A DNA stretch of 64,000 nucleotides from Campylobacterota bacterium. GTDB lineage: Bacteria > Campylobacterota > Campylobacteria > Campylobacterales > Thiovulaceae. Position numbers and translations under genes: made by a program. The notes beneath the pieces were generated by a model. The model was given only the letters and a program-made list of their open reading frames with translations. It had not been told where the DNA came from and did no database searches. The DNA lies in NCBI GenBank assembly GCA_030152305.1, contig JASKOM010000001.1, positions 201,174 through 265,173 on the forward strand. The letters run 5' to 3'. Shown here in pieces: positions 4,064 through 15,276 of this stretch (its first letter is position 1; every line of letters starts with the position of its first letter).

Positions 4064-4214
4064 GATAAATCCTACATATTTTTATTTTATGAATTAAGCG
4101 AATTTTATCAAGATAAATCACAACGATAACGAGACAGTTTGATTATTAATAAAAGTTTTTTTATGCAACCTCATCATACTCTCGGAAACGGTCAGCAACC
4201 ATTCCCTGCAAATT

Positions 4215-4946
4215 TTACATGATCGTTTTTATCTTCCACTTGATTTGATTATATTTACCAACGATCGCAATTCCAAAATCACGACCAGATGAGGTCATCT
4301 TCCAAATGCCATTTTCTCGAACTTGAAAACCTTTGTTTGCCAACATCAAATTAATCTCGACCGCTGATTTATTTATCATTTTGCCTAATTCAGTTGGTAA
4401 AAAGAATTGTGAATCGAGATCGATCTTGAAAGTTTTGAGAGGTGAAGTTCCAAATTGTTGGAGCATGATTTTGTCAAAACGAAATAGAGTTGTCTGTTTT
4501 CGTGTTTCTAAATTTTCAATAAAACCTAACAGCTTGTTTGAATAAATTTCATAATCGTTAAGTTCATTTGTCAGTTTTAGAAAGTCATGATTTTGTGAAG
4601 TTTGTTGTTTTTTAAACTGTTTTTCAACATTAATAAAATATTTTCTCACAGCTCGACCAATTGGATTATTTTCAATCATTGCTAATTCTTTCGCAACATC
4701 AATCGTTACAAGACAATCTCGATATTCAGCATAACCATTTTGTCCATTTTCTCGATGAGTTACTAAACTTTTAGTATGCCAAATAAAGTCTTCGTTTTCA
4801 ATAAACTCAAATTTATTAATTCGATTATTTATCCAGTCGTTAAAACGACTTTTTATATTTAAATGTTCGTGTAATTTTCTAGCTGAAACAAAATTGATTT
4901 TTTCGTTAGAAATCTGATATTCTATAATTTCGAAATTCAAAGGCAA
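4215..4946 (-). CDS. phage-type antirepressor (AntA/Bro-like N-terminal domain plus KilAC-like C-terminal domain)
   Basis: 243 aa. The N-terminus (VSARKLHEHLNIKSRFNDWINNRI...ENEDF) has the AntA/BRO pattern. The C-terminal roughly 60 aa are duplicated at 5388-5572. Confidence 0.65.
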   Translation of the reverse strand: MPLNFEIIEYQISNEKINFVSARKLHEHLNIKSRFNDWINNRINKFEFIENEDFIWHTKSLVTHRENGQNGYAEYRDCLVTIDVAKELAMIENNPIGRAVRKYFINVEKQFKKQQTSQNHDFLKLTNELNDYEIYSNKLLGFIENLETRKQTTLFRFDKIMLQQFGTSPLKTFKIDLDSQFFLPTELGKMINKSAVEINLMLANKGFQVRENGIWKMTSSGRDFGIAIVGKYNQIKWKIKTIM

Positions 4947-5063
4947 ATCCTTTTAAAAAATTGAGTGGTTTCTGTATTTTAAAACTTTTTGTCTTTGAGT
5001 TTGCTTAATGTGTTTTATATTATAAAATAATAATGTTTTATTTATTAAAACAAAGGAGGAAAA

Positions 5064-5288
5064 TTGACATATCAAGATTACGAAATAAAAATAAAAAAAC
5101 TTAATTTATCATCTGGAAAATTAACTAAAATTATGGGAATGGCAAGAACAACACCATCAGCTGTTTGGAAAAAAAAGGGAGATATTCCTATTCCTATTGA
5201 GAGATTTTTAGAAGTTTTGGAAAAATTAACAGAAGATGAAAGAATATTATTTGTTCATCATAAATTAGAAAATTATAAAAATATTTAA
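5064..5288 (+). CDS. small Cro/CI-like helix-turn-helix protein (hypothetical)
   Basis: 74-aa ORF with a TTG start preceded by aaaggagg. The pattern LTKIMGMARTTPSAVWKKKGDIPIPIERFL resembles small phage HTH regulators and the minus-strand ORF at 5589-5848. Confidence 0.4.
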   Translation: MTYQDYEIKIKKLNLSSGKLTKIMGMARTTPSAVWKKKGDIPIPIERFLEVLEKLTEDERILFVHHKLENYKNI

Positions 5289-5326
5289 ATATTAAATTTG
5301 GATTACTATAAGTTTAGTAACCCATT

Positions 5327-5347
5327 ATTCCGTGCATTGACACGGGA
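5327..5347. terminator. TTCCGTG...CACGGGA hairpin (member of a recurring stem family)
   Basis: attccgtg-cattga-cacggga lies 39 nt downstream of the stop at 5288. The same stem sequence occurs at 8971, 34358 and 48053. Confidence 0.4.
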
Positions 5348-5387
5348 TCTTTTCTCGGAAACGGTCGGCGACCATTCTCTACAAATT

Positions 5388-5572
5388 TTACATGATCGTT
5401 TTTATCTTCCACTTAATCTGGTGATATTTACCAACGATCGCAATTCCAAATTCGCGACCCGATGAGGTCATTTTCCAAATGCCATTTTCTCGAATTTGAT
5501 AACCACGATTTGCCAACATCAAATTAATCTCGACTGGCGATTTATTGATCATTCCTCCAAGTTCGGTAAGTT
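5388..5572 (-). pseudogene. orphan 3' fragment of an antirepressor gene (KilAC-like tail)
   Basis: My translation is LTELGGMINKSPVEINLMLANRGYQIRENGIWKMTSSGREFGIAIVGKYHQIKWKIKTIM*. It is collinear with the last roughly 62 codons of 4215-4946 and has no N-terminal part. The 34 nt after the stop are also duplicated. Confidence 0.7.
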
Positions 5573-5588
5573 ATAAAAAGCAATATTA

Positions 5589-5848
5589 TTAACTTGAAAG
5601 CATTGTTACACGATTTGTAAATTCTTTAAATAATGAAATTGTTGATTTTTGTGTTTCATATTCACTTAAAATTTTCAAATATTGAGATCCACAAGTTGGT
5701 ATTTTTTGACCTGCCCCCAGTTTCTCAATGTTTGTTCAGCTATGCCCGTTTTAATAGCAAGTTCTTTATATGTAATTTTTAATAATTCACATGTTTTTTT
5801 AACAAGATTTTCTTCTTTGTCTTTTTCGGTTTTTTCGACTTCGCTCAA
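5589..5848 (-). CDS. small HTH protein, possibly frameshifted at a G5/C5 run
   Basis: My minus-strand translation from the TTG at 5848 gives MSEVEKTEKDKEENLVKKTCELLKITYKELAIKTGIAEQTLRNWG. The frame then stops after 56 aa, but a shift at ctgcccccag (5711-5720) continues as GAGQKIPTCGSQYLKILSEYETQKS...MLSS* ending at 5589. Confidence 0.35.
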
Positions 5849-5975
5849 GTTCAGTCCTTTTTTTAATTAATTTTTATTTCTCGTAATTTTAATATTTTTG
5901 CAATTTTTATATAAAAATCGTTTCTTGACTCTTTGATAAGATTCTTAAAAATTTGAAAGAAAATAAAATAATAAA

Positions 5976-8966
5976 ATGACTTCCGAAGAAATTAATAGAA
6001 AATTAGCTGATCCGAAACGGCTTTTGACTGATATATATTTTGAATTACAAGAAGCCTTTGAAAATAAATATGGCGAAAATGTTCTTATTTTTCTTGAATT
6101 GGGTAGCTTTTTTGAAATTTATTCGGTTGATAATGAACAGCTCAAAATTGGCAAAGCCCGTGAAGTTGCTGAAATGTTAAATATTCAGCTAACACGAAAA
6201 AATAAAAGTATCGCCGAAAATTCGATAAAAAATCCATTTATGGCTGGTGTTCCAACTGTTTCGTTTGAACGACATTTAAATAGAATTATTTCAGAAGCAA
6301 AATATACGATTGTTCTTATTCGTCAGCGAGGCGAACCGCCTCAAGTTGTTAGATATTTGCATCAAATTATTTCACCCGGAACAAATTTTGATTATTTGTC
6401 TGATAGTAACGAAAATTTTATTGTTGCTCTTTCGATTGATGCACATAAAAATAGCTATTCGATCGGTTATTCGGCTATTGATGTTTCAACTGGTGTTTCG
6501 TTAGTTTCTGAAATTCATAGCAGTATCGAAGATCAAAATTATGCTCTCGATGAGGTTTTTAATTTGTTGCATATTTATAAAAGTTCAGAAATCGTGTTGA
6601 ATTTTTTATCGAAATTTATAAATCAGCAAAAAATTATCGAATATCTCGAAGTGAAAAAAAATTATCATTATTCTGTTCATTCTGGACGAATAAAAATAGA
6701 TTTTCAAAATGAACTTTTTAAACGAGTTTTTAATACAAGTTCGTTTTTATCGCCAATCGAAGAGTTAAATCTTGAACATTTGCCACTTGCTTCTGAATCG
6801 TTGGCAATTTTGATCGAATTTATTTTTCAGCATGATTATAAAATCGTTGAAAGACTTGATCGTCCGCAAATTCTCGAAAATCGTAATCGATTATATTTAG
6901 GCAATAATGCAATTGAACAGTTAGATATTATAAAAAATATAAATGACAACGGTTTATTATCGTTGATTGATAAAAGTTCAACGGCAATGGGCAAAAGATT
7001 ATTAAAAGCTAGACTTTTAAATCCTGTTTCTGATTCGAAAGAGATTCGAGATCGTTTCGCTTTGAATGATCGAGTTTATCCGTTTTTGTCAGAAATCGAA
7101 TCGAATTTAAAAAAAATATATGATCTTGAGCGAATTTCTCGACGAATAAAATTAAAAAAATTACATCCGTTTGAAATAAATTATTTACATATTTCACTTT
7201 TGGCAGTTGTCGAAATTTCAAAACTTGTCAAAAAGAACCTCATCGAAGATTTTCATTTTTCAGAAAGTGAAATTCGTGGCATGATCGATTTAATCGAAAA
7301 TTATTTCGAACTTTCGATAACTCAAAAATATAATATTGACAAAATCGAAGAGAATCTTTTTTTGCATGGTGTCAGTCGCGAAGTTGATCGAATTGAAAAT
7401 GATATTTCAGGTTATATAAAAACTTTGAATTTAATCGTCGAGAAAATAGCAAGTTTATTAAAAACTAAAACGAATAAAAGCGACGGCGAAATGGTCAATT
7501 TGGGTTCTCTCGAAAAAGAAGGCTATTATATTTCGCTAACGGCAAATCGTTTTAATTTAATCGAACGAGATTTTCTCGAAGAAAAAATAATAATAGGCAG
7601 TCGAGAATATTTTTTTAGAGATTTTAAAATAAGAAAATTATCGAACAATGTAAAAATCACAGCTGAAATTATCGATAAATTTTCTGAACAGATTTCAGCT
7701 TCTCAAACTAAATTAGCTTCGTTAATATATGACGAATTTTTAATTCAGTTACATGAAATAGATCAAAAATATTCGATAATTCTAGAAAAAATCGCATATT
7801 TTATTGCCAAAATTGATATTGCAGTTTCAAATGGCAAAGTAAAAAATAGTTTAAAATATTCTCAACCTGAAATTATCGATGTTGATTCTGGTGATAATTT
7901 TTTACAAATTGCAAAATTAAGACATCCGTTAATTGAACGACGAGAATCAGCGGGAATTTTTGTTCCGAATGATATTTTTTTAGGCAAGAAAAAATATTTA
8001 ACAGATCTTGATAATTTTGATAAAAATGTTATCGATGCTACTGAAGATGAACAAATAAATGGCATTTTATTATATGGCATAAATTCGAGTGGCAAATCGT
8101 CATTAATGAAAAGTATCGGAATTGCGGTTATTCTTGCTCAAGGCGGTTTTCCAGTTCCAGCTGAAAGCATGAAATTTTCGTTATTCAAATCGCTTTTTAC
8201 TCGAATTGTTTCTCGAGATAATTTGCAAAAAGGACTTTCAAGTTTTGCCGTCGAAATGGTCGAATTAAAAAATATTTTTAATCGAGCAGGTGAAAAAACT
8301 ATCGTTTTAGGTGATGAGATTTCTCACGGAACTGAAACACTTTCGGGAGTTGCAATCGTTTCAAGTGCAATTATGCGACTTGTCGAAAATAAAACACTTT
8401 TTGTTTTTGCTACACATTTGCATCAATTAACGAAAATCGATGAGGTGCAAAATTTAACGACAGTTGTCAATTTGCATTTAGCCGTAAAATATGATGAAAG
8501 TAGTGATAAATTAATATTTAATCGAAAATTGCAAATTGGAAGCGGAAGTAGTATTTACGGGCTTGAATTCGCTCGTTCGTTGCATATGGATGAAAAGTTT
8601 TTAAAAAATGCGAATTCGATTCGAAAAAAATTAGCCGACGAATATAGCGACATCGAAATGTTAATGCAAAAAAAACAGAGCAAATATAACAGCAATTTAT
8701 ATTTAACGAAATGTATTATTTGTGGCGAAAAAGTAGATGATGTTCATCATATTGCAGAAAAAAAATTATCTCGAAACGGTTTTATTGGTCATTTTTCTAA
8801 AAATCACAAACATAATCTTATTCCACTTTGCAAAAATCATCATATGGCAATTCACGATAAAAAAATTGATGTCAAAGGTTTTATGATGACATCATCAGGT
8901 TTAGAATTGCATTATGAAGATGAGTCTGAACCTGAAACAGAAGAAAAGATAGAAAATAGAAACTAA
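5976..8966 (+). CDS. MutS-family ATPase with C-terminal HNH nuclease (MutS7-like)
   Basis: 996 aa. N-terminal MutS domain-I-like region (FMAGVPTVSFERHLNRII), core/clamp region, Walker A GINSSGKSS, Walker B LGDEISHGTE, and a C-terminal HNH (CIICGEKVDDVHHI...NLIPLCKNHHMAIH). Confidence 0.85.
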   Translation: MTSEEINRKLADPKRLLTDIYFELQEAFENKYGENVLIFLELGSFFEIYSVDNEQLKIGKAREVAEMLNIQLTRKNKSIAENSIKNPFMAGVPTVSFERHLNRIISEAKYTIVLIRQRGEPPQVVRYLHQIISPGTNFDYLSDSNENFIVALSIDAHKNSYSIGYSAIDVSTGVSLVSEIHSSIEDQNYALDEVFNLLHIYKSSEIVLNFLSKFINQQKIIEYLEVKKNYHYSVHSGRIKIDFQNELFKRVFNTSSFLSPIEELNLEHLPLASESLAILIEFIFQHDYKIVERLDRPQILENRNRLYLGNNAIEQLDIIKNINDNGLLSLIDKSSTAMGKRLLKARLLNPVSDSKEIRDRFALNDRVYPFLSEIESNLKKIYDLERISRRIKLKKLHPFEINYLHISLLAVVEISKLVKKNLIEDFHFSESEIRGMIDLIENYFELSITQKYNIDKIEENLFLHGVSREVDRIENDISGYIKTLNLIVEKIASLLKTKTNKSDGEMVNLGSLEKEGYYISLTANRFNLIERDFLEEKIIIGSREYFFRDFKIRKLSNNVKITAEIIDKFSEQISASQTKLASLIYDEFLIQLHEIDQKYSIILEKIAYFIAKIDIAVSNGKVKNSLKYSQPEIIDVDSGDNFLQIAKLRHPLIERRESAGIFVPNDIFLGKKKYLTDLDNFDKNVIDATEDEQINGILLYGINSSGKSSLMKSIGIAVILAQGGFPVPAESMKFSLFKSLFTRIVSRDNLQKGLSSFAVEMVELKNIFNRAGEKTIVLGDEISHGTETLSGVAIVSSAIMRLVENKTLFVFATHLHQLTKIDEVQNLTTVVNLHLAVKYDESSDKLIFNRKLQIGSGSSIYGLEFARSLHMDEKFLKNANSIRKKLADEYSDIEMLMQKKQSKYNSNLYLTKCIICGEKVDDVHHIAEKKLSRNGFIGHFSKNHKHNLIPLCKNHHMAIHDKKIDVKGFMMTSSGLELHYEDESEPETEEKIENRN

Positions 8967-8970
8967 TTCT

Positions 8971-8997
8971 ATTCCGTGTTCTAATTTAGCACGGAAT
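8971..8997. terminator. perfect 8-bp hairpin ATTCCGTG-N11-CACGGAAT after the mutS-like gene
   Basis: attccgtg ttctaatttag cacggaat starts 5 nt after the stop at 8966. Confidence 0.55.
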
Positions 8998-9055
8998 CAA
9001 AAAATATTAAAATATAAATACTAAAATTACGATAAATTAAAAGGTTCTTAAAAAA

Positions 9056-11944
9056 ATGATACACAAAAAGATTCTCGAGCGGGAATTAAAAAATATAAAT
9101 GAAATTGAAGTTAGCAGTGCTTTTGCAGGTTTGGAAAAGTTTAAAAACTCAATCGAAAATATCAAAAAAGCAAAAGAAGAAAGTTATCAATACGGTTTTC
9201 TCGAAGACTTTTTTGTAAAAAGCTTAGGCTATATATTAAATCCGTCGCCAAATTATAATTTGACAACTGAATTTAAAAACGAAAGCAACAATAAAAAAGC
9301 TGACGGTTCGATTTTGATAAATGGCAAACCGATCGCTGTTATCGAATTAAAATCAGTTGCAACGAAATCAATGGATAAAATCGTTGATCAAGCATTTAGT
9401 TATAAAAACAACCATCCAAGTTGTCATTATGTTATAACTTCTAATTTTGAAAAAATGCGGTTTTATATCGAATATTCAAATGAATTTATAGAATTTGATT
9501 TGTTTAACTTGCGGTTCGAAGATTTCAAAAAGCTTTATTTGTTGGTTGGGCGAAATTCGATTTTGAACGATTTGCCGAAAAAATGGCGAGACGAATCGAA
9601 ATATAATCAGGTGAATATAGCGAACGAGTTTTATAAAAAATTCTCGAATTTGCGAACCAGACTTTTTGATGAAATTGCAAATATAAATAAAATCGAAAAA
9701 TTAGATGCTCTTTCGCTTTCTCAAAAGTTGCTCGATAGAGCTATTTTTATATTTTTCGCTGGTGATCGAGGTTTAATCGATTCGAAAACGGTTGATGATT
9801 TTATCGCGAGATTTAAAAATGATCTCGAAGGTCGCGATTTATATCATTTTGTCAAGCTTTTATTCAAAGCGATTGATATTGGAAATGCAAAAATTAGAAT
9901 TCCTCCATATAATGGTGGCTTGTTTGCAAATGACGAAATTCTCGATTCGTTGAAAATTAGCGATTCGCTTTTGTTGGAAATATTGAATTTATCGAGTTAC
10001 GATTTTGAAAGTGATATCGATGTTAATATTTTAGGGCATATTTTTGAAAATAGCCTTGATGAACTTGAGAAAATTCGCGAAGATTTAATCGGTGGAAAAT
10101 TTGATTCGAATCGTTCAAAACGAAAACGAGACGGCATTTTTTATACTCCTAATTATATAACTGAATTTATAGTTGAGAATTCAGTTGGTGCAATTTGTGA
10201 AAAGCGAAAAGCTGAACTCGAATTAATTAATTTTGAAGATGCAAGTGAAGAAAAAATAAAAAGCTATTTAGATTTTTTGACAAATTTGAAAATTGTTGAT
10301 CCTGCTTGTGGTTCGGGAGCATTTTTAAATATGGCTTTTAACTATTTATTTGTTGAATATAAACATTGTTATGATATTTTAAACAATTTTGCGATGAAAA
10401 AAGGCGATTTATTTTTGAGTTCTGATTTTGATGTTTCGATTCTCGAGAATAATTTGTTTGGTGTTGATTTGAATGCTGAAGCGGTTGAAATTGCGAAATT
10501 GTCGCTTTGGTTGAAAACGGCAAAACGAAACAGAAAATTAACTGATTTGAATAAAAATATAAAAGTTGGTAATTCACTTATAAGTCATTCTGAATCTCAA
10601 ACATTAAAACAAGTTACAAAAGCTTTTGATTGGCAAAATGAATTTCCTGATATTTTTGCAAAAGGCGGTTTTGATATCGTAATCGGAAATCCGCCGTATG
10701 GTGCAAATATTGAACACGAAAAGACATTTTTTGAAATTCAATCTGGCGAAAGTGCAATTTTATTTATGCAACTTGCTCGTCAATTGTTAAAAAATAATGG
10801 AATTGCTGGTTTTATTGTTCCAAAACCTTTTCTTTATTCTTCGAGTTGGGAAGAAATTAGATCTGTTTTGAAAGAAGAAATTTCTCATATTGTTGATTGT
10901 GGCAAAGTTTGGGATGAAGTAAAATTAGAACAGGTGATATATATTTCTCATAAGTTAAATAAAATTGATAATTATAAAAATTACCAATTGGAAGAAACAA
11001 AATTTAAAGAATTATCAACAGTAAAAAAAGACCTCATCGAAAAATTTGGATTTTTTGTAAATGGAGTTAATCAGAGAGAAATAGAAATTGCTTTGAAAAT
11101 TAAAAAGCAGTTAAATAATTTGTTTGATATTTCAGCTGAATGTAGTCGTGGCGGAGCATTTCAACATGCAATCAATTCAACTGGAGAAATTCAAGTTTTA
11201 GGCGGAATTAATTTAGCAAGATATGAAATTAAAGATGTCAAAGGTTTTATTTCTTCAGATTTTGAAATTTCAAATGATTCTTTTATTAAAGCTAATTCGA
11301 TATTAGTTCAGAGAATTATTGCTCATATTCAAAATCCAACTGATCACATTAAATTGATAGGAACAATTAGCGATAACTTAAATAATATTGCCATTGTGAA
11401 TACAATTTACCAAATCACATTTGATGAAAAATATTCTAATAAATATATTCTCGCTTTACTTCATTCAAATTTAATAAATTGGTTTATTTATCGTTTTGTA
11501 TTCGCAAAAGCTATTAGAACAATGGATTTATCGAATCATGTAATAAAACGAATCCCAATTCCTGAAATTTCAGAAAATGAACAAAAACCGTTCGTCGAGC
11601 GAGTTGATAAATTGGTTGAACTTTATGCTCAACTTCAGCAAACCAAAAACGAATTTCTCGAAACTCTCGAACTCGAAAAGATTCCGCAAAAACTTGATAA
11701 TTTTGCAAAACTCGAATTTGACGAATTCATCATCGAATTATCAAAAGCGAAAAAAATAAAATTGTCTGACAAAAAATTAGAACGGGAATTTAAAAAAAGC
11801 TGGAAAAATATATTCGACGAAGATAAATCAAAAGTTCAAAACCTGCTCTCGCAAATTTCAAAAATCGAACACGAAATCGATCGTGAAGTTTATAAACTTT
11901 ATGCTTTAAACGAAGATGAAATAAAAATCATCGAGAATATATAA
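9056..11944 (+). CDS. Type IIG restriction-modification enzyme (fused PD-(D/E)xK nuclease, N6-adenine methyltransferase and specificity region)
   Basis: 962 aa. Nuclease-like DGSILINGKPIAVIELKS, methyltransferase motif I VDPACGSGAFL, motif IV GNPPYG, and a C-terminal tail (VYKLYALNEDEIKIIENI) typical of Eco57I/MmeI-like and PglX-like enzymes. Confidence 0.85.
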   Translation: MIHKKILERELKNINEIEVSSAFAGLEKFKNSIENIKKAKEESYQYGFLEDFFVKSLGYILNPSPNYNLTTEFKNESNNKKADGSILINGKPIAVIELKSVATKSMDKIVDQAFSYKNNHPSCHYVITSNFEKMRFYIEYSNEFIEFDLFNLRFEDFKKLYLLVGRNSILNDLPKKWRDESKYNQVNIANEFYKKFSNLRTRLFDEIANINKIEKLDALSLSQKLLDRAIFIFFAGDRGLIDSKTVDDFIARFKNDLEGRDLYHFVKLLFKAIDIGNAKIRIPPYNGGLFANDEILDSLKISDSLLLEILNLSSYDFESDIDVNILGHIFENSLDELEKIREDLIGGKFDSNRSKRKRDGIFYTPNYITEFIVENSVGAICEKRKAELELINFEDASEEKIKSYLDFLTNLKIVDPACGSGAFLNMAFNYLFVEYKHCYDILNNFAMKKGDLFLSSDFDVSILENNLFGVDLNAEAVEIAKLSLWLKTAKRNRKLTDLNKNIKVGNSLISHSESQTLKQVTKAFDWQNEFPDIFAKGGFDIVIGNPPYGANIEHEKTFFEIQSGESAILFMQLARQLLKNNGIAGFIVPKPFLYSSSWEEIRSVLKEEISHIVDCGKVWDEVKLEQVIYISHKLNKIDNYKNYQLEETKFKELSTVKKDLIEKFGFFVNGVNQREIEIALKIKKQLNNLFDISAECSRGGAFQHAINSTGEIQVLGGINLARYEIKDVKGFISSDFEISNDSFIKANSILVQRIIAHIQNPTDHIKLIGTISDNLNNIAIVNTIYQITFDEKYSNKYILALLHSNLINWFIYRFVFAKAIRTMDLSNHVIKRIPIPEISENEQKPFVERVDKLVELYAQLQQTKNEFLETLELEKIPQKLDNFAKLEFDEFIIELSKAKKIKLSDKKLEREFKKSWKNIFDEDKSKVQNLLSQISKIEHEIDREVYKLYALNEDEIKIIENI
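11631..11944 (+). repeat. copy 1 of a 314-bp direct repeat (3' end of the Type IIG gene)
   Basis: Aligns without gaps to 14265-14578 (offset 2634). About 5 mismatches in the first roughly 270 bp by hand alignment; the last roughly 45 bp are clearly diverged. Confidence 0.9.
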
Positions 11945-11963
11945 AATTCTTAAGTTTTCTTTT

Positions 11964-12030
11964 CTTCGATGATGTTTAGTTTTTATTAATTAAAACCTCA
12001 TCGGGGAATTTGGGATAGAATTACAGCAAA
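11964..12030. repeat. junction repeat copy a (imperfect GATGATGT/ACCTCATC hairpin plus G/A-rich tail)
   Basis: ttcgatgatgtttagtttttattaattaaaacctcatcggggaatttgggataga. Homologous to 14158-14230 and more loosely to 30731-30822. Probably the terminator of the Type IIG gene. Confidence 0.55.
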
Positions 12031-12052
12031 ATATAACTAGCAAGATAAAAAT

Positions 12053-12580
12053 ATGAGACAAGAAAAAATTAATTATATACAAGCAGTTGTAACAGAAATA
12101 AGAAAGTATTTTCAATTAAAAGATTTTTTATCAAGAGAAGATTTAACTAATTTAGTGGAAAAATTAGAAGGTAGTTTAGAATTTCAATTTGACTTAGATG
12201 TTGATGCTAAAATAGAAAGAATAGATAAAAATTTTAAGATTACTATTAAACCGTCTAACTTAGCATTAAGAGACAACTTTAGTATAGCTCATGAGTTGGG
12301 GCATTTATTTTTACATATGGGTTATCTAATAGATAATAACATGTGGATGAACTCTAAGCTTAGATATGATCGTTTTGGTTATTCTCAAGAAGAATTTGAA
12401 GCAAATGAGTTTGCAGGTAATTTACTTATGCAAGAACATTTGTTTATTAAAGAATTTAGAAACAATTATGACTCTAAACAGCAAGTAGTTAATCTAAAAA
12501 AAATGAGCAAAATATTTAATGTTTCTCCAAAAGCAATTGAAGTTCGTGCCAAAAATATAGGTTTGATTAAACAGTGTTAG
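12053..12580 (+). CDS. ImmA/IrrE-family (COG2856-like) zinc metallopeptidase
   Basis: 175 aa. HEXXH in SIAHELGHLFLH, followed by the family-typical EEFEANEFAGNLLM. The stop overlaps the GTG start of the next ORF (gtgttag). Confidence 0.75.
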   Translation: MRQEKINYIQAVVTEIRKYFQLKDFLSREDLTNLVEKLEGSLEFQFDLDVDAKIERIDKNFKITIKPSNLALRDNFSIAHELGHLFLHMGYLIDNNMWMNSKLRYDRFGYSQEEFEANEFAGNLLMQEHLFIKEFRNNYDSKQQVVNLKKMSKIFNVSPKAIEVRAKNIGLIKQC

Positions 12581-13200
12581 AAGATTTAAGCAATAACTTA
12601 CAAACTGTCAATCGAGAACATACTAATAAAGATGAGTCTGGAGTATTCGTATTTTTCTCTTTTGATCTTGTTAATTCAACACTGTTTAAAACATTACATC
12701 AAAATAATTGGTTTGTTTTTATTAAAGAATTTTATGATTCCATCATATCTATTCGAAAACATGAACCTACCATTACATTATGGAAATATGTTGGTGATGA
12801 GGTCTTATTTTATAAAAAAATATTAGACAAAAACGAAATTTATAATTTATTATTAAAAACTAGAGAAATCATAGATTATACAGAGCGAAAACTACAAGAA
12901 ATTGATCTTATAGAACAAGAATCAAATAAATGTAAAACAAATTTAGATATAAAACTATATGTCAAAGCAACTTTATGGATTGCAAAAGCTTCAAAAAATG
13001 TAAAAGGATCAAAAAATATTGTTATTGATACTGAAAAAGGTCTTGATTTTATAGGAGAAGATATTGATTTAGGCTTTAGAATATCTAAATATTCATTTGA
13101 TTCAAAAATAGTTCTTGATGCAATAATCACTTATATGCTGATCAAACAGGAACATGAAATAAAAAAGAAATATCATATATCAATAAGGCACATATATTAA
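12574..13200 (+). CDS. class III nucleotidyl-cyclase-like domain protein (5' part of a frameshifted gene)
   Basis: 208 aa. FFSFDLVNST matches the FaDivGfT metal-Asp strand, WKYVGDEVLFY matches the K-x-iGD strand, and FIGEDIDLGFRISKYSFDSKIVL matches the G-x-x-VN-x-A-x-R segment. The final cyclase strands continue in the +1 frame from 13187. Confidence 0.5.
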   Translation: MLEDLSNNLQTVNREHTNKDESGVFVFFSFDLVNSTLFKTLHQNNWFVFIKEFYDSIISIRKHEPTITLWKYVGDEVLFYKKILDKNEIYNLLLKTREIIDYTERKLQEIDLIEQESNKCKTNLDIKLYVKATLWIAKASKNVKGSKNIVIDTEKGLDFIGEDIDLGFRISKYSFDSKIVLDAIITYMLIKQEHEIKKKYHISIRHIY

Positions 13201-13288
13201 AATCGTTTCATTTGAAGAGTTAAAAGGTGTTTGGAACAGTAGAAAATATCCCATCATTTGGTATGACGAATCGTGGGATATTCAAAAG

Positions 13289-13900
13289 ATGTTTAAATAT
13301 GATGATAGATTTAATAATAAAATCGTTGAAAATATTATAAATGGTTCTTTTTCTAAATATTCAAATATTATAGATTTAGAGCATATTTTAAAAGATTTAA
13401 ATAAGCTTGATTTAGTTCAAGATTTAGAATTAACAATTAAGAATACTAAAAAGACAAAACCTATTTTAGAAAAGAAATTATCAGAAATACATTGTGTAGC
13501 TATCAGCTTCTATGAAACAAAAGTATTAATTGGTAAACGAAAAGCAAATAAAGAACTATTGCCAAATGTATGGGATTTTGGTTGTGCAAAAATGGGATTT
13601 AAGGATACATTTCAAGATGCAATAAAACGAGATTATAAAACGGATTTCAATGTAGATTTAATTTTAGAAGAAAATGATTTAACACCTATTGCAACATATA
13701 CAATAGAAAAATCTTCTGTTTCTGGTGTAATATTTGTGGCTAAAATTCATGACATTAGTATATTAAAATCTAATAAACATAGTGAATCTAAAATGTTAGA
13801 TATTGCTGAAGTTAAAGATTTCATAAATAATAATGAAACTATTCCAAATTTTGAATCTACTATAAATAAAGCATACGAATTATTCATAAAAAAATTTTAA
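13289..13900 (+). CDS. 3' part of the same gene: end of the cyclase domain, linker, and a degenerate Nudix-like domain
   Basis: This frame is already open from 13187 (GTYIKIVSFEELKGVWNSRKYPIIWYDESW...). The C-terminal VLIGKRKANKELLPNVWDFGCAKMGFKDTFQDAIKRDYKTDFNV follows the Nudix layout, but the Nudix-box glutamates are largely replaced (RDYKTD instead of RExxEE). Confidence 0.4.
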   Translation: MFKYDDRFNNKIVENIINGSFSKYSNIIDLEHILKDLNKLDLVQDLELTIKNTKKTKPILEKKLSEIHCVAISFYETKVLIGKRKANKELLPNVWDFGCAKMGFKDTFQDAIKRDYKTDFNVDLILEENDLTPIATYTIEKSSVSGVIFVAKIHDISILKSNKHSESKMLDIAEVKDFINNNETIPNFESTINKAYELFIKKF

Positions 13901-14157
13901 TTTAAAAATTAAATAGAGATAAATCAGATGTTATCAGAGAATTAATTGAAGAATTTGCTAAAACATCAGAATTTAATAGCTTTATTGAGCATATTGAAAA
14001 GTGGTTGTTAAACCGAAAAGAAGCTTTAAAACTTTAATCTCCAAAAATATTAAAATTAAATTAACATAAGAAATTTGTCATTTTAAAGAATTAAAAATTA
14101 TTGATTATTCTTGGCTAAATCGCTGAAATTTGGCATTACGGCATATATTTTTTATTT

Positions 14158-14230
14158 ATTCGATGAGGTCTAGTTTTTATGAAATCTCATCGAAGAGAAT
14201 TTGAGATTTGAGAGTAGCGAAGTTTTATAG
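14158..14230. repeat. junction repeat copy b (GATGAGGT / ATCTCATC hairpin plus GAGAATTTGAGATTTGAGAG tail)
   Basis: ttcgatgaggtctagtttttatgaaatctcatcgaagagaatttgagatttgagagtagcgaagtt. Homologous to copy a and to 30731-30822. Confidence 0.55.
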
Positions 14231-14264
14231 TTTGTAAAAAAGACTGTTCTAAATTTAAATTATA

Positions 14265-14578
14265 AAGTTCAGCAAACCAAAAACGAATTTCTCGAAACTC
14301 TCGAACTCGAAAAGATTCCGCAAAAACTTGATAATTTTGCAAAACTCGAATTTGACGAATTTATCATCGAATTATCAAAAGCGAAAAAACTAAAATTGTC
14401 TGACAAAAAATTAGAACGGGAATTTAAAAAAAGCTGGAAAAATATATTCGACGAAGATAAATCAAAAGTTCAAAATCTGCTCTCACAAATTTCAAAAATC
14501 GAACACGAAATCGATCGTGAAGTTTATAAACTTTATGGCTTAACTCGAAATGAAATAGAAATCGTGGAGAAAATATAA
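14265..14578 (+). pseudogene. orphan 3' fragment of a Type IIG RM gene (copy 2 of the 314-bp direct repeat)
   Basis: In-frame translation is ...QQTKNEFLETLELEKIPQKLDNFAKLEFDEFIIELSKAKKLKLSDKKLEREFKK...VYKLYGLTRNEIEIVEKI*. It has no upstream methyltransferase or nuclease part. The track ORF 14396-14578 is its tail. Confidence 0.85.
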
Positions 14579-14664
14579 AAAGCTAAATCGCAACTTACAA
14601 ATCATAATTCTTAGATCCCGAAACAAGCTCCAGTAACTTGTTTCTTGATTGTTGTTTTTTTTAA

Positions 14665-15276
14665 TTAAATATTCGATAAATAATAACTTATTGATGTTTT
14701 TCCAAATTTTTTTGTTTTAATTAAATTTAAATTTCCAAGTTGCAGATTAGGATTATAACTTGACATGTGTTCTAATATAATAATATTAAAATTATTATTA
14801 TTTTTTAATAAAAGTTCTATTTTATTATAAATATTTGTCATACCATCGCGAATAGCAAATGGTGGATCGATATATAAAATATAATTTGACGACAATGTAT
14901 TTTTAGCAAGTTTTTTTAAATTCTCAAAACTATCACCAGCGATTATTTCAAGATTATTTTGTGTAATTTCATGTGATAAAAAAAGTTCTCGATTTTTATG
15001 TAAAGTATAAAGTGCCTCTTTGTTTATTTCAAAGAATATTATTTTTTCGGCTCCTCGAGAAAGAGCTTCGAATCCAATAGAACCACTTCCAGCAAACAGT
15101 TCTACAAAAGTAGAACCTCTAATTTCGATTTGAAGCGAATCAAAAATAGAATCTCTAACTATTGATTTCGAAGGTCTCGTTTTATCAGTTTGTGGCAATA
15201 AAATTTTCTTGCCTTTATATTTACCACCGCTAATTAATATAAACAATTGTTTATCTGTTTTTTGATTATTTTTCAA
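14665..15276 (-). CDS. rsmD: 16S rRNA (guanine966-N2)-methyltransferase RsmD
   Basis: 203 aa. SAM motif ELFAGSGSIGFEALSRGA and catalytic DPPF (YIDPPFA). Confidence 0.8.
   Translation of the reverse strand: MKNNQKTDKQLFILISGGKYKGKKILLPQTDKTRPSKSIVRDSIFDSLQIEIRGSTFVELFAGSGSIGFEALSRGAEKIIFFEINKEALYTLHKNRELFLSHEITQNNLEIIAGDSFENLKKLAKNTLSSNYILYIDPPFAIRDGMTNIYNKIELLLKNNNNFNIIILEHMSSYNPNLQLGNLNLIKTKKFGKTSISYYLSNI

Follow-up and report, generated by a model that had tools for sequence, protein, structure and literature searches.

Gene content of the cassette

A stretch of 64,000 nucleotides (nt) from the genome of a Campylobacterota bacterium of the Thiovulaceae (GenBank assembly GCA_030152305.1, contig JASKOM010000001.1, forward-strand positions 201,174 to 265,173), here called the window, carries a cassette of two co-oriented genes directly behind a Type IIG restriction-modification gene. 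The first gene encodes a zinc metallopeptidase of the M78 family, the second a fusion of a domain with the fold of class III nucleotidyl cyclases and a domain with Nudix fold. A preliminary description, made from the DNA letters alone, had proposed this pair as a new type of nucleotide-signalling defence module. The components of the cassette are as follows, with coordinates counted from the first letter of the window:

12053-12580, plus strand: M78 (ImmA/CapP-like) zinc metallopeptidase, 175 amino acids (aa), intact (Pfam, PADLOC, AlphaFold2 model)
12574-13900, plus strand: cyclase-Nudix fusion gene, about 441 aa once repaired, here a pseudogene (full-length homologues, alignment across the junction, AlphaFold2 model)
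12637-13270, plus strand: domain with class III nucleotidyl-cyclase fold, residues ~22-232 (Foldseek, column counts)
13185-13186, plus strand: frameshift site, AA in place of the single A of intact alleles (alignment with contigs L041, L042 and L043)
13478-13897, plus strand: Nudix-fold domain with degenerate box (WDFGCAKMG...IKRDYKTDFNV; profile, Foldseek, PADLOC PDC-S07)

The reading frame of the first gene and its match to the Pfam family PF06114 (Peptidase_M78, 1e-13) confirmed the earlier assignment as an ImmA-type peptidase of 175 aa with the motifs HELGH (residues 80-84) and EANEFAG (residues 114-120). Residues H80, E81, H84 and E114 were invariant among 31 orthologues adjoining a cyclase gene. 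The conserved positions of this M78 family include no cysteine, and a cysteine-switch residue is thus not evident. The AlphaFold2 model, based on an alignment with 60 homologues (predicted local distance difference test, pLDDT, 95.5), consists of the peptidase core and two short helices, after which the chain ends without a GAF domain. Its best match in the PDB was CapP from Thauera (7t5t, E 7e-7), with which it aligned over 185 columns of the 278-residue chain, followed by PprI/IrrE. The top PADLOC match was likewise capP (1e-19), covering profile positions 20-151 of 242 only, and the RmrA profile of PADLOC was matched as well. The nearest homologues in a large protein collection were all stand-alone proteins of 156-192 aa, mostly ~170-190 aa. 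In the window, the TAG stop codon of the peptidase gene (12578-12580) overlaps the GTG start codon of the following gene (12574) within the sequence GTGTTAG, which confirmed the proposed translational coupling of the two genes.

The second gene is split into a segment in frame 1 (12574-13200), which ends at a stop codon after 208 aa, and a segment in frame 2 (13187-13900). The break is caused by one extra A at 13185/13186. Two metagenome contigs with the same cassette, L041 (ENA ERZ27245496) and L042 (JGI 3300009455), read TCAAT-AGG where the window reads TCAATAAGG, and their reading frame continues through this site; the translation of L041 across it is ...YHISIGTYIKIVSFEELKGVW... L041 is 98.5% identical to the window across the 1508 nt shared. 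In the alignment, contig L043 has the same insertion as the window, and an independent Logan assembly of run SRR24719468 contains the extra A. The joined translation retrieved 230 homologues; the best of them, of ~460 aa, align past the junction with 94-100% of the query, at E values down to 2e-71 and 33-38% identity. Furthermore, in an alignment of 54 family members, to which all column counts below refer, the window protein retains every invariant residue on either side of the break.

As nearly identical alleles lack the single base and a second assembly contains it, the frameshift points to a real and very recent mutation. A programmed frameshift was rejected, because these alleles simply do not carry the extra A, and an assembly error is less likely given that the independent assembly shows the same base. 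The window copy is probably non-functional, because its second gene is frameshifted and no effector gene was found anywhere in the 64 kb, as described below.

The N-terminal cyclase domain

The AlphaFold2 model of the repaired protein (pLDDT 89.7, predicted template modelling score 0.75) shows two clear domains, and only one short helix lies N-terminal to the first of them. The linker between the domains is flexible around residues 290-305, where pLDDT is ~73. A Foldseek comparison of the N-terminal half with the PDB placed class III cyclases on top, including CyaC (1wc4, E 2e-8, TM-score TMt 0.70) and Rv1900c (1ybu, TMt 0.85). Model and structural matches hence bear out the class III cyclase fold that had been read from the sequence. 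The invariant residues of this domain include D31, N34, T36, D75, E76, D165, R169 and G219, and position 218 is a lysine in 53 of the 54 members. D31 is located in the motif SFDLVNST, D75 in WKYVGDE, D165 and R169 in G.DID.GFR, and K218 in LKG.W. Judged by motif position, these motifs presumably correspond to the catalytic elements of class III cyclases, with D31 and D75 as the metal-binding aspartates and with the transition-state residues likewise retained. All motifs quoted in the preliminary description (FSFDLVNST, KYVGDEV, GEDIDLGFRISK, ELKGV...YPIIWY and, for the C-terminal domain, VLIGKRK...WDFGCAKMG) are indeed present and fall on invariant alignment columns.

Sequence models gave a different picture. 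The second protein of the window matched no Pfam family at E<=1 and neither the PADLOC PycC model nor the Pfam cyclase models at E<=1, and none of the 54 family members matched PF00211 or PADLOC PycC at E<=0.1. A comparison of the family profile with the sequences of the entire PDB at E<=10 retrieved no cyclase, all matches being Nudix or IDI proteins. Since the sequence profile finds no solved cyclase, the cyclase fold is visible by structure comparison only. Of the checks suggested earlier for the repaired protein, structure comparison thus recovered the class III fold, whereas the PF00211 sequence model did not match. The predicted structure together with the conserved residues suggests that the N-terminal domain is a highly diverged, catalytically complete class III cyclase domain.

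Distribution of the family and linkage of protease and cyclase

A scan of 1.84 billion cluster representatives (50% identity) retrieved 606 representatives of the cyclase-Nudix family at E<=1e-30. They originate from Bacillota, Campylobacterota, Spirochaetota, Verrucomicrobiota, Patescibacteria and other phyla. Gene neighbourhoods were compared in 33 genomic loci, taken from contigs of one genome per species across many phyla, and in 44 viral loci on IMG/VR contigs. A dedicated M78 gene lies directly upstream of the cyclase gene in 27 of the genomic loci, with gaps of -128 to +21 nt, and in 43 of the viral ones. M78 proteins adjoining the cyclase scored 1e-35 to 1e-68 against the window protein, as compared with 1e-16 to 1e-24 for other M78 proteins encoded in the same loci. 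The pairwise distances of M78 and cyclase-Nudix proteins were correlated (r = 0.71, 23 loci; 0 of 2000 permutations reached this value), as would be expected from the sequences of a co-inherited unit. For many M78 homologues the longest contig equals in size that of a cyclase-Nudix match, which suggests that both genes share these contigs. Two tandem M78 genes precede the cyclase-Nudix gene in a metagenome-assembled genome of Verrucomicrobiia (L017, 1559-5540) and in L008 (4713-6023).

The pair thus co-occurs in dozens of unrelated genomes, and its surroundings are restriction and defence islands and prophage lysogeny modules. Neighbouring genes across the loci include Type I, II and IIG restriction systems, GajB (Gabija), LmuB (Lamassu), AbiL and six integrases. 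In Geobacillus sp. NFOSA3 (L004), PycTM, M78 and cyclase-Nudix genes, in this order, form an insertion with the repressor of a prophage on one side and the ImmA and integrase genes belonging to that prophage on the other. The region between prophage repressor and integrase is a typical place for defence genes that are expressed in the lysogen.

The preliminary description had emphasised that the usual helix-turn-helix (HTH) repressor partner of ImmA-type proteases is missing, and this was confirmed in the window and in nearly all family loci. The window contains no HTH partner gene. Among ~36 distinct loci, an XRE-type HTH gene was found nearby only in L001, L004 and L018, that of L004 being the prophage cI gene; this search used jackhmmer with two XRE seeds, which divergent or very small HTH proteins could escape.

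These data bear on the question whether the M78 protein is an ordinary transcriptional switch. CapH and CapP have been described as DNA-damage-responsive regulators beside CBASS, Pycsar, BREX and DISARM systems, and an ImmA-type protease next to cyclase-based immunity is therefore not as novel as first assumed, all the more so as CapP is the best structural match of the M78 protein. By analogy, M78 might respond to DNA damage by cutting an unlinked or unrecognised repressor, so that the cyclase operon is expressed more strongly, and would have no direct action on the cyclase. The capP match in PADLOC, the structural matches to CapP and then PprI/IrrE, and the reported position of CapH and CapP beside Pycsar and other systems agree with such a role, as does an 86-aa HTH_3 gene directly upstream of M78 in Aliarcobacter (L001). 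In common with CapP, and also with the proteases of the IrrE/DdrO and ImmA/ImmR pairs, the family has the HExxH core and a place at the head of an immune operon. The differences are nevertheless considerable. An HTH substrate gene is lacking in nearly all loci, only three of the ~36 having an XRE-type gene nearby in the two-seed search, which could miss divergent repressors; the central HTH-like linker of CapP and the C-terminal GAF domain of CapP and IrrE are absent from the 175-aa window protein, in line with the partial coverage of the capP profile; and no cysteine switch is evident. Moreover, the overlap of the M78 gene with the cyclase gene in the window and the strict adjacency of the two fit a subunit-like partnership. 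We therefore consider a purely transcriptional role unlikely.

Association with Pycsar effectors

In Geobacillus (L004) and Clostridium perfringens (L006), a gene annotated by Pfam as PycTM (PF18967) directly adjoins the pair. With a profile built from these two proteins, PycTM was found next to the pair in 7 of the 33 genomic loci, a lower bound as several contigs are truncated, and in 7 of 8 distinct full-length prophage loci. In the Verrucomicrobiia locus L017, a canonical PycC recognised by PADLOC (241 aa) and a 200-aa protein with multiple transmembrane segments are encoded on the opposite strand directly downstream of the pair. The family is thus repeatedly linked to PycTM, which contradicts the earlier view that the pairing falls outside known cyclase effector logic. 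Because PycTM effectors recur beside the pair, the family belongs with Pycsar-type signalling and is not a new kind of system.

A PycTM profile was compared with all reading-frame segments of 15 aa or more throughout the 64-kb window and returned nothing at E<=10. In the loci without PycTM, neither iterated searches for this effector nor hydropathy scanning of the neighbouring genes turned up a recurrent alternative effector; the sole find was an unrelated protein with two transmembrane segments. A few kb from the Geobacillus cassette, L004 carries a gene with metallo-beta-lactamase fold (12735-13367) with a weak match to the Pfam family Anti-Pycsar_Apyc1.

Known Pycsar cyclases are class III-like, and members of their clades A-E are described with either a single cyclase domain or a pair of them. 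A 2026 survey of immune cyclic mononucleotide (cNMP) cyclases distinguishes Pycsar-1, -2, -3, Pycsar-like-4 and Pucsar, describes AGS-C fusions and reports links to E2/JAB, WYL and caspase proteins, with no mention of Nudix or M78. The family shares with Pycsar a cyclase of class III fold whose catalytic residues are all in place, an adjacent PycTM gene in many loci, and sites in prophages and defence islands. It differs in that PycC and Pfam cyclase models miss its cyclase, in that this cyclase has a pseudo-Nudix domain as fusion partner and a dedicated M78 gene ahead of it, and in that many loci, the window included, have no effector. The descriptions of clades A-E, Pycsar-1/2/3, Pycsar-like-4 and Pucsar, which contain neither Nudix nor M78, set them apart from the family.

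A parallel in domain layout is offered by Pycsar-2 and by the Type I CBASS CD-NTases with AGS-C, where a signalling synthase likewise carries a C-terminal non-catalytic domain thought to tune sensing, and where effectors with transmembrane segments prevail. The AGS-C domain of Pycsar-2 is Ig-like, whereas the C-terminal domain of the window protein is of Nudix type, and the N-terminal bihelical domain of Pycsar-2 is absent from the window protein. A relationship of AGS-C to Nudix would have made the architecture a known one; this was rejected, as AGS-C is Ig-like and the family members match NUDIX models only.

The presence of the family at 44 loci on IMG/VR viral contigs raises the question whether the pair serves prophages or other mobile elements as a regulatory rather than a defence module, with the ImmA-like protease and a cyclic mononucleotide signal controlling induction, excision or maintenance of lysogeny. 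ImmA-type proteases classically control element induction, and the Geobacillus genes lie between a cI-like repressor and an integrase. However, the prophages carrying the pair in L004, L016 and L051 possess their own, separate ImmA-like M78 gene beside the integrase, the pair also occurs in restriction islands outside prophages, as in the window, and the linked PycTM is a membrane-disrupting effector of abortive infection. A regulatory function of this kind appears very improbable to us.

The degenerate Nudix domain

The C-terminal domain has a Nudix fold with a degenerate box, as initially described, and profile, structure comparison and column counts agree on this. In the comparison of the family profile with the PDB, the Nudix part matched MutT (2e-9) and also BdRppH, Orf135 and IDI. 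Foldseek superimposed the C-terminal ~135 residues on BdRppH, MutT2 and Orf135 with TMt values of 0.68-0.78 (0.72-0.78 for BdRppH and MutT2), and on CDP-Chase with ~0.5. NUDIX and NUDIX_4 were the Pfam families matched consistently among the 54 members, and no other family was.

With canonical hydrolases such as MutT, Orf135/NudG and RppH, and with IDI, the domain has the fold in common and a profile similarity of 2e-9 to 1e-5. It differs in that the catalytic residues of the motif GX5EX7REUXEEXGU are not kept and another invariant set is present instead. At the positions equivalent to the MutT box, R52 is an arginine in 17 of the 54 members, E53 a glutamate in 8 and E56 a glutamate in 15, while the equivalent of E57 stays acidic in 53. 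W334, E335, F336, G337, C338, Y355, D358 and F359 form the other conserved set. In the window, the box reads ...IKRDYKTDFN..., without the catalytic glutamates. A canonical REUXEE motif was found in 0 of 33 locus proteins, with or without PycTM, and no catalytic Nudix domain was found in loci without an effector.

The domain is also absent from parts of the family. In L094-L096 (JGI 3300026544 and others), a 275-aa cyclase-only protein without Nudix domain is coupled to an M78 protein that shares 53% identity with the one of the window, and L029, L030 and L079-L084 have shorter versions consisting of the cyclase alone. As the REUXEE motif is absent and M78-cyclase pairs without Nudix exist, protease and cyclase form, on sequence evidence, the conserved core, and the Nudix-like domain is an accessory part.

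All 54 members match PDC-S07 of PADLOC, the best at 1e-13 and the Nudix part of the window protein at 1e-8. PDC-S07 is a profile of 135 positions for stand-alone genes of ~130 aa, e.g. from S. thermophilus, without cyclase and without protease. The prediction that PADLOC would be silent on the cassette accordingly held for the cyclase, which is not recognised, and failed for the protease (capP, RmrA) and the Nudix domain (PDC-S07).

The preliminary description had considered the Nudix domain as a possible effector, and the two genes could form a self-sufficient module in which this domain kills or arrests the cell by hydrolysis of nucleotides or of a metabolite derived from NAD, with PycTM as an optional addition. 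Such a module would account for the majority of genomic loci in which neither PycTM nor another obvious effector is found, and the match of all 54 members to a stand-alone Nudix-like defence candidate is in agreement with it. The poor conservation of the catalytic box positions, the absence of REUXEE from the locus proteins and the existence of M78-cyclase pairs without Nudix render an effector function of the domain highly unlikely. Because the box is degenerate everywhere, a regulatory role of the domain is more probable than one as effector, and most likely it binds a ligand. The best structural matches include enzymes of cytidine nucleotides, namely MutT2 with CTP, CMP or dCTP, the CTP pyrophosphohydrolase Orf135 and CDP-Chase. 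These modelled similarities might hint at a pyrimidine ligand and are suggestive only.

Genomic island and arrival of the cassette

The cassette is part of an island with the following further features:

4215-4946: AntA-like gene, member of the island
5976-8966, plus strand: MutS homologue, 996 aa, with domains I, II, III and V and a C-terminal HNH/DUF968 nuclease-like region
9056-11944, plus strand: Type IIG restriction-modification gene, 962 aa, whose 3' end is the left repeat and directly behind which the cassette lies (Pfam, PADLOC)
11633-11944, plus strand: first copy of a direct repeat, the last 312 nt of the restriction gene (self-comparison, comparison with L041 and L042)
11965-12005, plus strand: hairpin motif at the left edge of the cassette (TTCGATGATGTTTAGTTTTTAT...CCTCATCG; motif count, DNA fold z -3.0)
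13929-14039, plus strand: short orphan reading frame of 36 codons (DVIRELIEEFAKTSEFNSFIEHIEKWLLNRKEALKL*), read from the sequence, without start context
14159-14199, plus strand: hairpin motif again, at the cassette's right edge (motif count, DNA fold z -2.6)
14267-14578, plus strand: second copy of the direct repeat, an orphan restriction-gene 3' end that retains the native stop; between it and rsmD lies the native terminator region (repeat comparison)
14665-15276, minus strand: rsmD, bordering the island

The Type IIG gene matched the Pfam families Eco57I (6e-35), MmeI_Mtase, N6_Mtase and TaqI_C and the PADLOC model REase_MTase_IIG (5e-163). The MutS homologue may resemble the MutS7-type proteins reported from Epsilonproteobacteria. 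The whole block from ~4100 to 14650, comprising the AntA-like gene, the MutS-HNH gene, the Type IIG gene and the cassette, is absent at this site from the two closest genomes, whose LeuC is 93-94% identical to that of the window, compared with 86% for a Thiovulum protein. In these two genomes, a DUF7494/TPR gene and PPK2 come after rsmD, and neither restriction gene nor cassette is present. The setting in a restriction and defence island proposed at the outset was thereby substantiated, and this island is strain-specific.

The bracketing repeats noticed earlier are real and consist of two direct copies of 312 nt, one at 11633-11944 and the other at 14267-14578. The copies differ by four mismatches over the first ~270 nt, their last ~45 nt have diverged, and they have nothing in common past the stop codon. 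The diverged end of the first copy and the sequence following it agree with the version that the cassette carries in L041 and L042. These two contigs contain only ~150 nt of the restriction-gene segment, with homology starting at about position 11793 of the window, and their upstream DNA is unrelated. In L041 and L042, the cassette thus travels with a 3' fragment of the restriction gene. The arrangement of the repeats suggests that the 312-nt duplication is a scar, left when the resident gene underwent a single crossover with incoming DNA that carried a homologous fragment.

A 22-nt hairpin-forming motif (TTCGATGAGGTCTAGTTTTTAT) occurs in two copies in the 64 kb, with 0 expected. The copies flank the cassette in direct orientation and could be terminator remnants or a recombination site. 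The orphan reading frame at 13929-14039 matched none of the open reading frames of the fetched loci and is probably the C-terminal remnant of a gene lost from the inserted segment. A promoter scan gave 13 sites, compared with 20.8 expected.

Proposed function and implications

Taken with the mechanism proposed here, the cassette is probably a decayed copy of a Pycsar-type cyclic-nucleotide module against phages, with an architecture that had not been recognised. A search of open-access papers and bioRxiv found no description of a cyclase-Nudix protein and an ImmA-type metallopeptidase together with Pycsar, and the two-gene module is apparently undescribed. What is new is the combination of a cyclase too diverged for annotation and defence-finder models, a CapP-like protease without HTH partner, and a pseudo-Nudix fusion.

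As to the protease's mode of action, the nucleotide product and the trigger, we infer the following course. In intact relatives, a CapP/ImmA-like peptidase of ~175 aa would be co-translated with a protein of ~460 aa composed of cyclase, helical linker and Nudix domain. Infection would be sensed through the peptidase, the nucleotide-binding pseudo-Nudix domain, or both. The peptidase would then relieve an inhibition of the cyclase post-translationally, in the simplest case by cutting the cyclase-Nudix protein itself or an inhibitor bound to it, and not by cleaving an HTH repressor. The released cyclase would synthesise a cyclic mononucleotide, and this signal would open the adjacent PycTM membrane effector, where present, so that the infection is aborted. 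The module of the window would have arrived by recombination behind the Type IIG gene, without PycTM, and would later have been broken by the insertion of one nucleotide.

Several observations weigh against this interpretation. The PycC and PF00211 sequence models are blind to the cyclase domain, and homology specifically to Pycsar cyclases, as compared with class III cyclases in general, is therefore unsupported. A recognisable effector is missing from the majority of genomic loci, among them the Campylobacterota relative L001, and from the window. Transcriptional control of the CapH and CapP type is the documented role of this protease fold, and the Aliarcobacter locus has an HTH_3 gene upstream of M78.

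A related, more tentative possibility assigns the protease a larger part. M78 may be a core subunit that itself senses infection and activates the cNMP cyclase by proteolysis, for instance by removing or unlocking the pseudo-Nudix sensor. The family would then constitute a separate, protease-gated branch of cyclic-mononucleotide immunity that escapes present defence finders, with PycTM as just one of several exchangeable outputs and with many loci signalling to targets that are unlinked or unknown.

If the assignment as a Pycsar-type module is correct, several hundred lineages would be added to cyclic-mononucleotide immunity, all of them missed by the Pfam and PADLOC cyclase models. The CapP/ImmA-type protease would gain a role beyond the cleavage of HTH repressors, and the family would offer a tractable case of a pseudo-enzyme domain, here Nudix, that a signalling cyclase has acquired, probably to sense nucleotides. 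The window itself illustrates how defence cassettes are gained by recombination near restriction genes and decay fast, a single frameshift distinguishing this copy from an intact allele that is 98.5% identical across the stretch they share.

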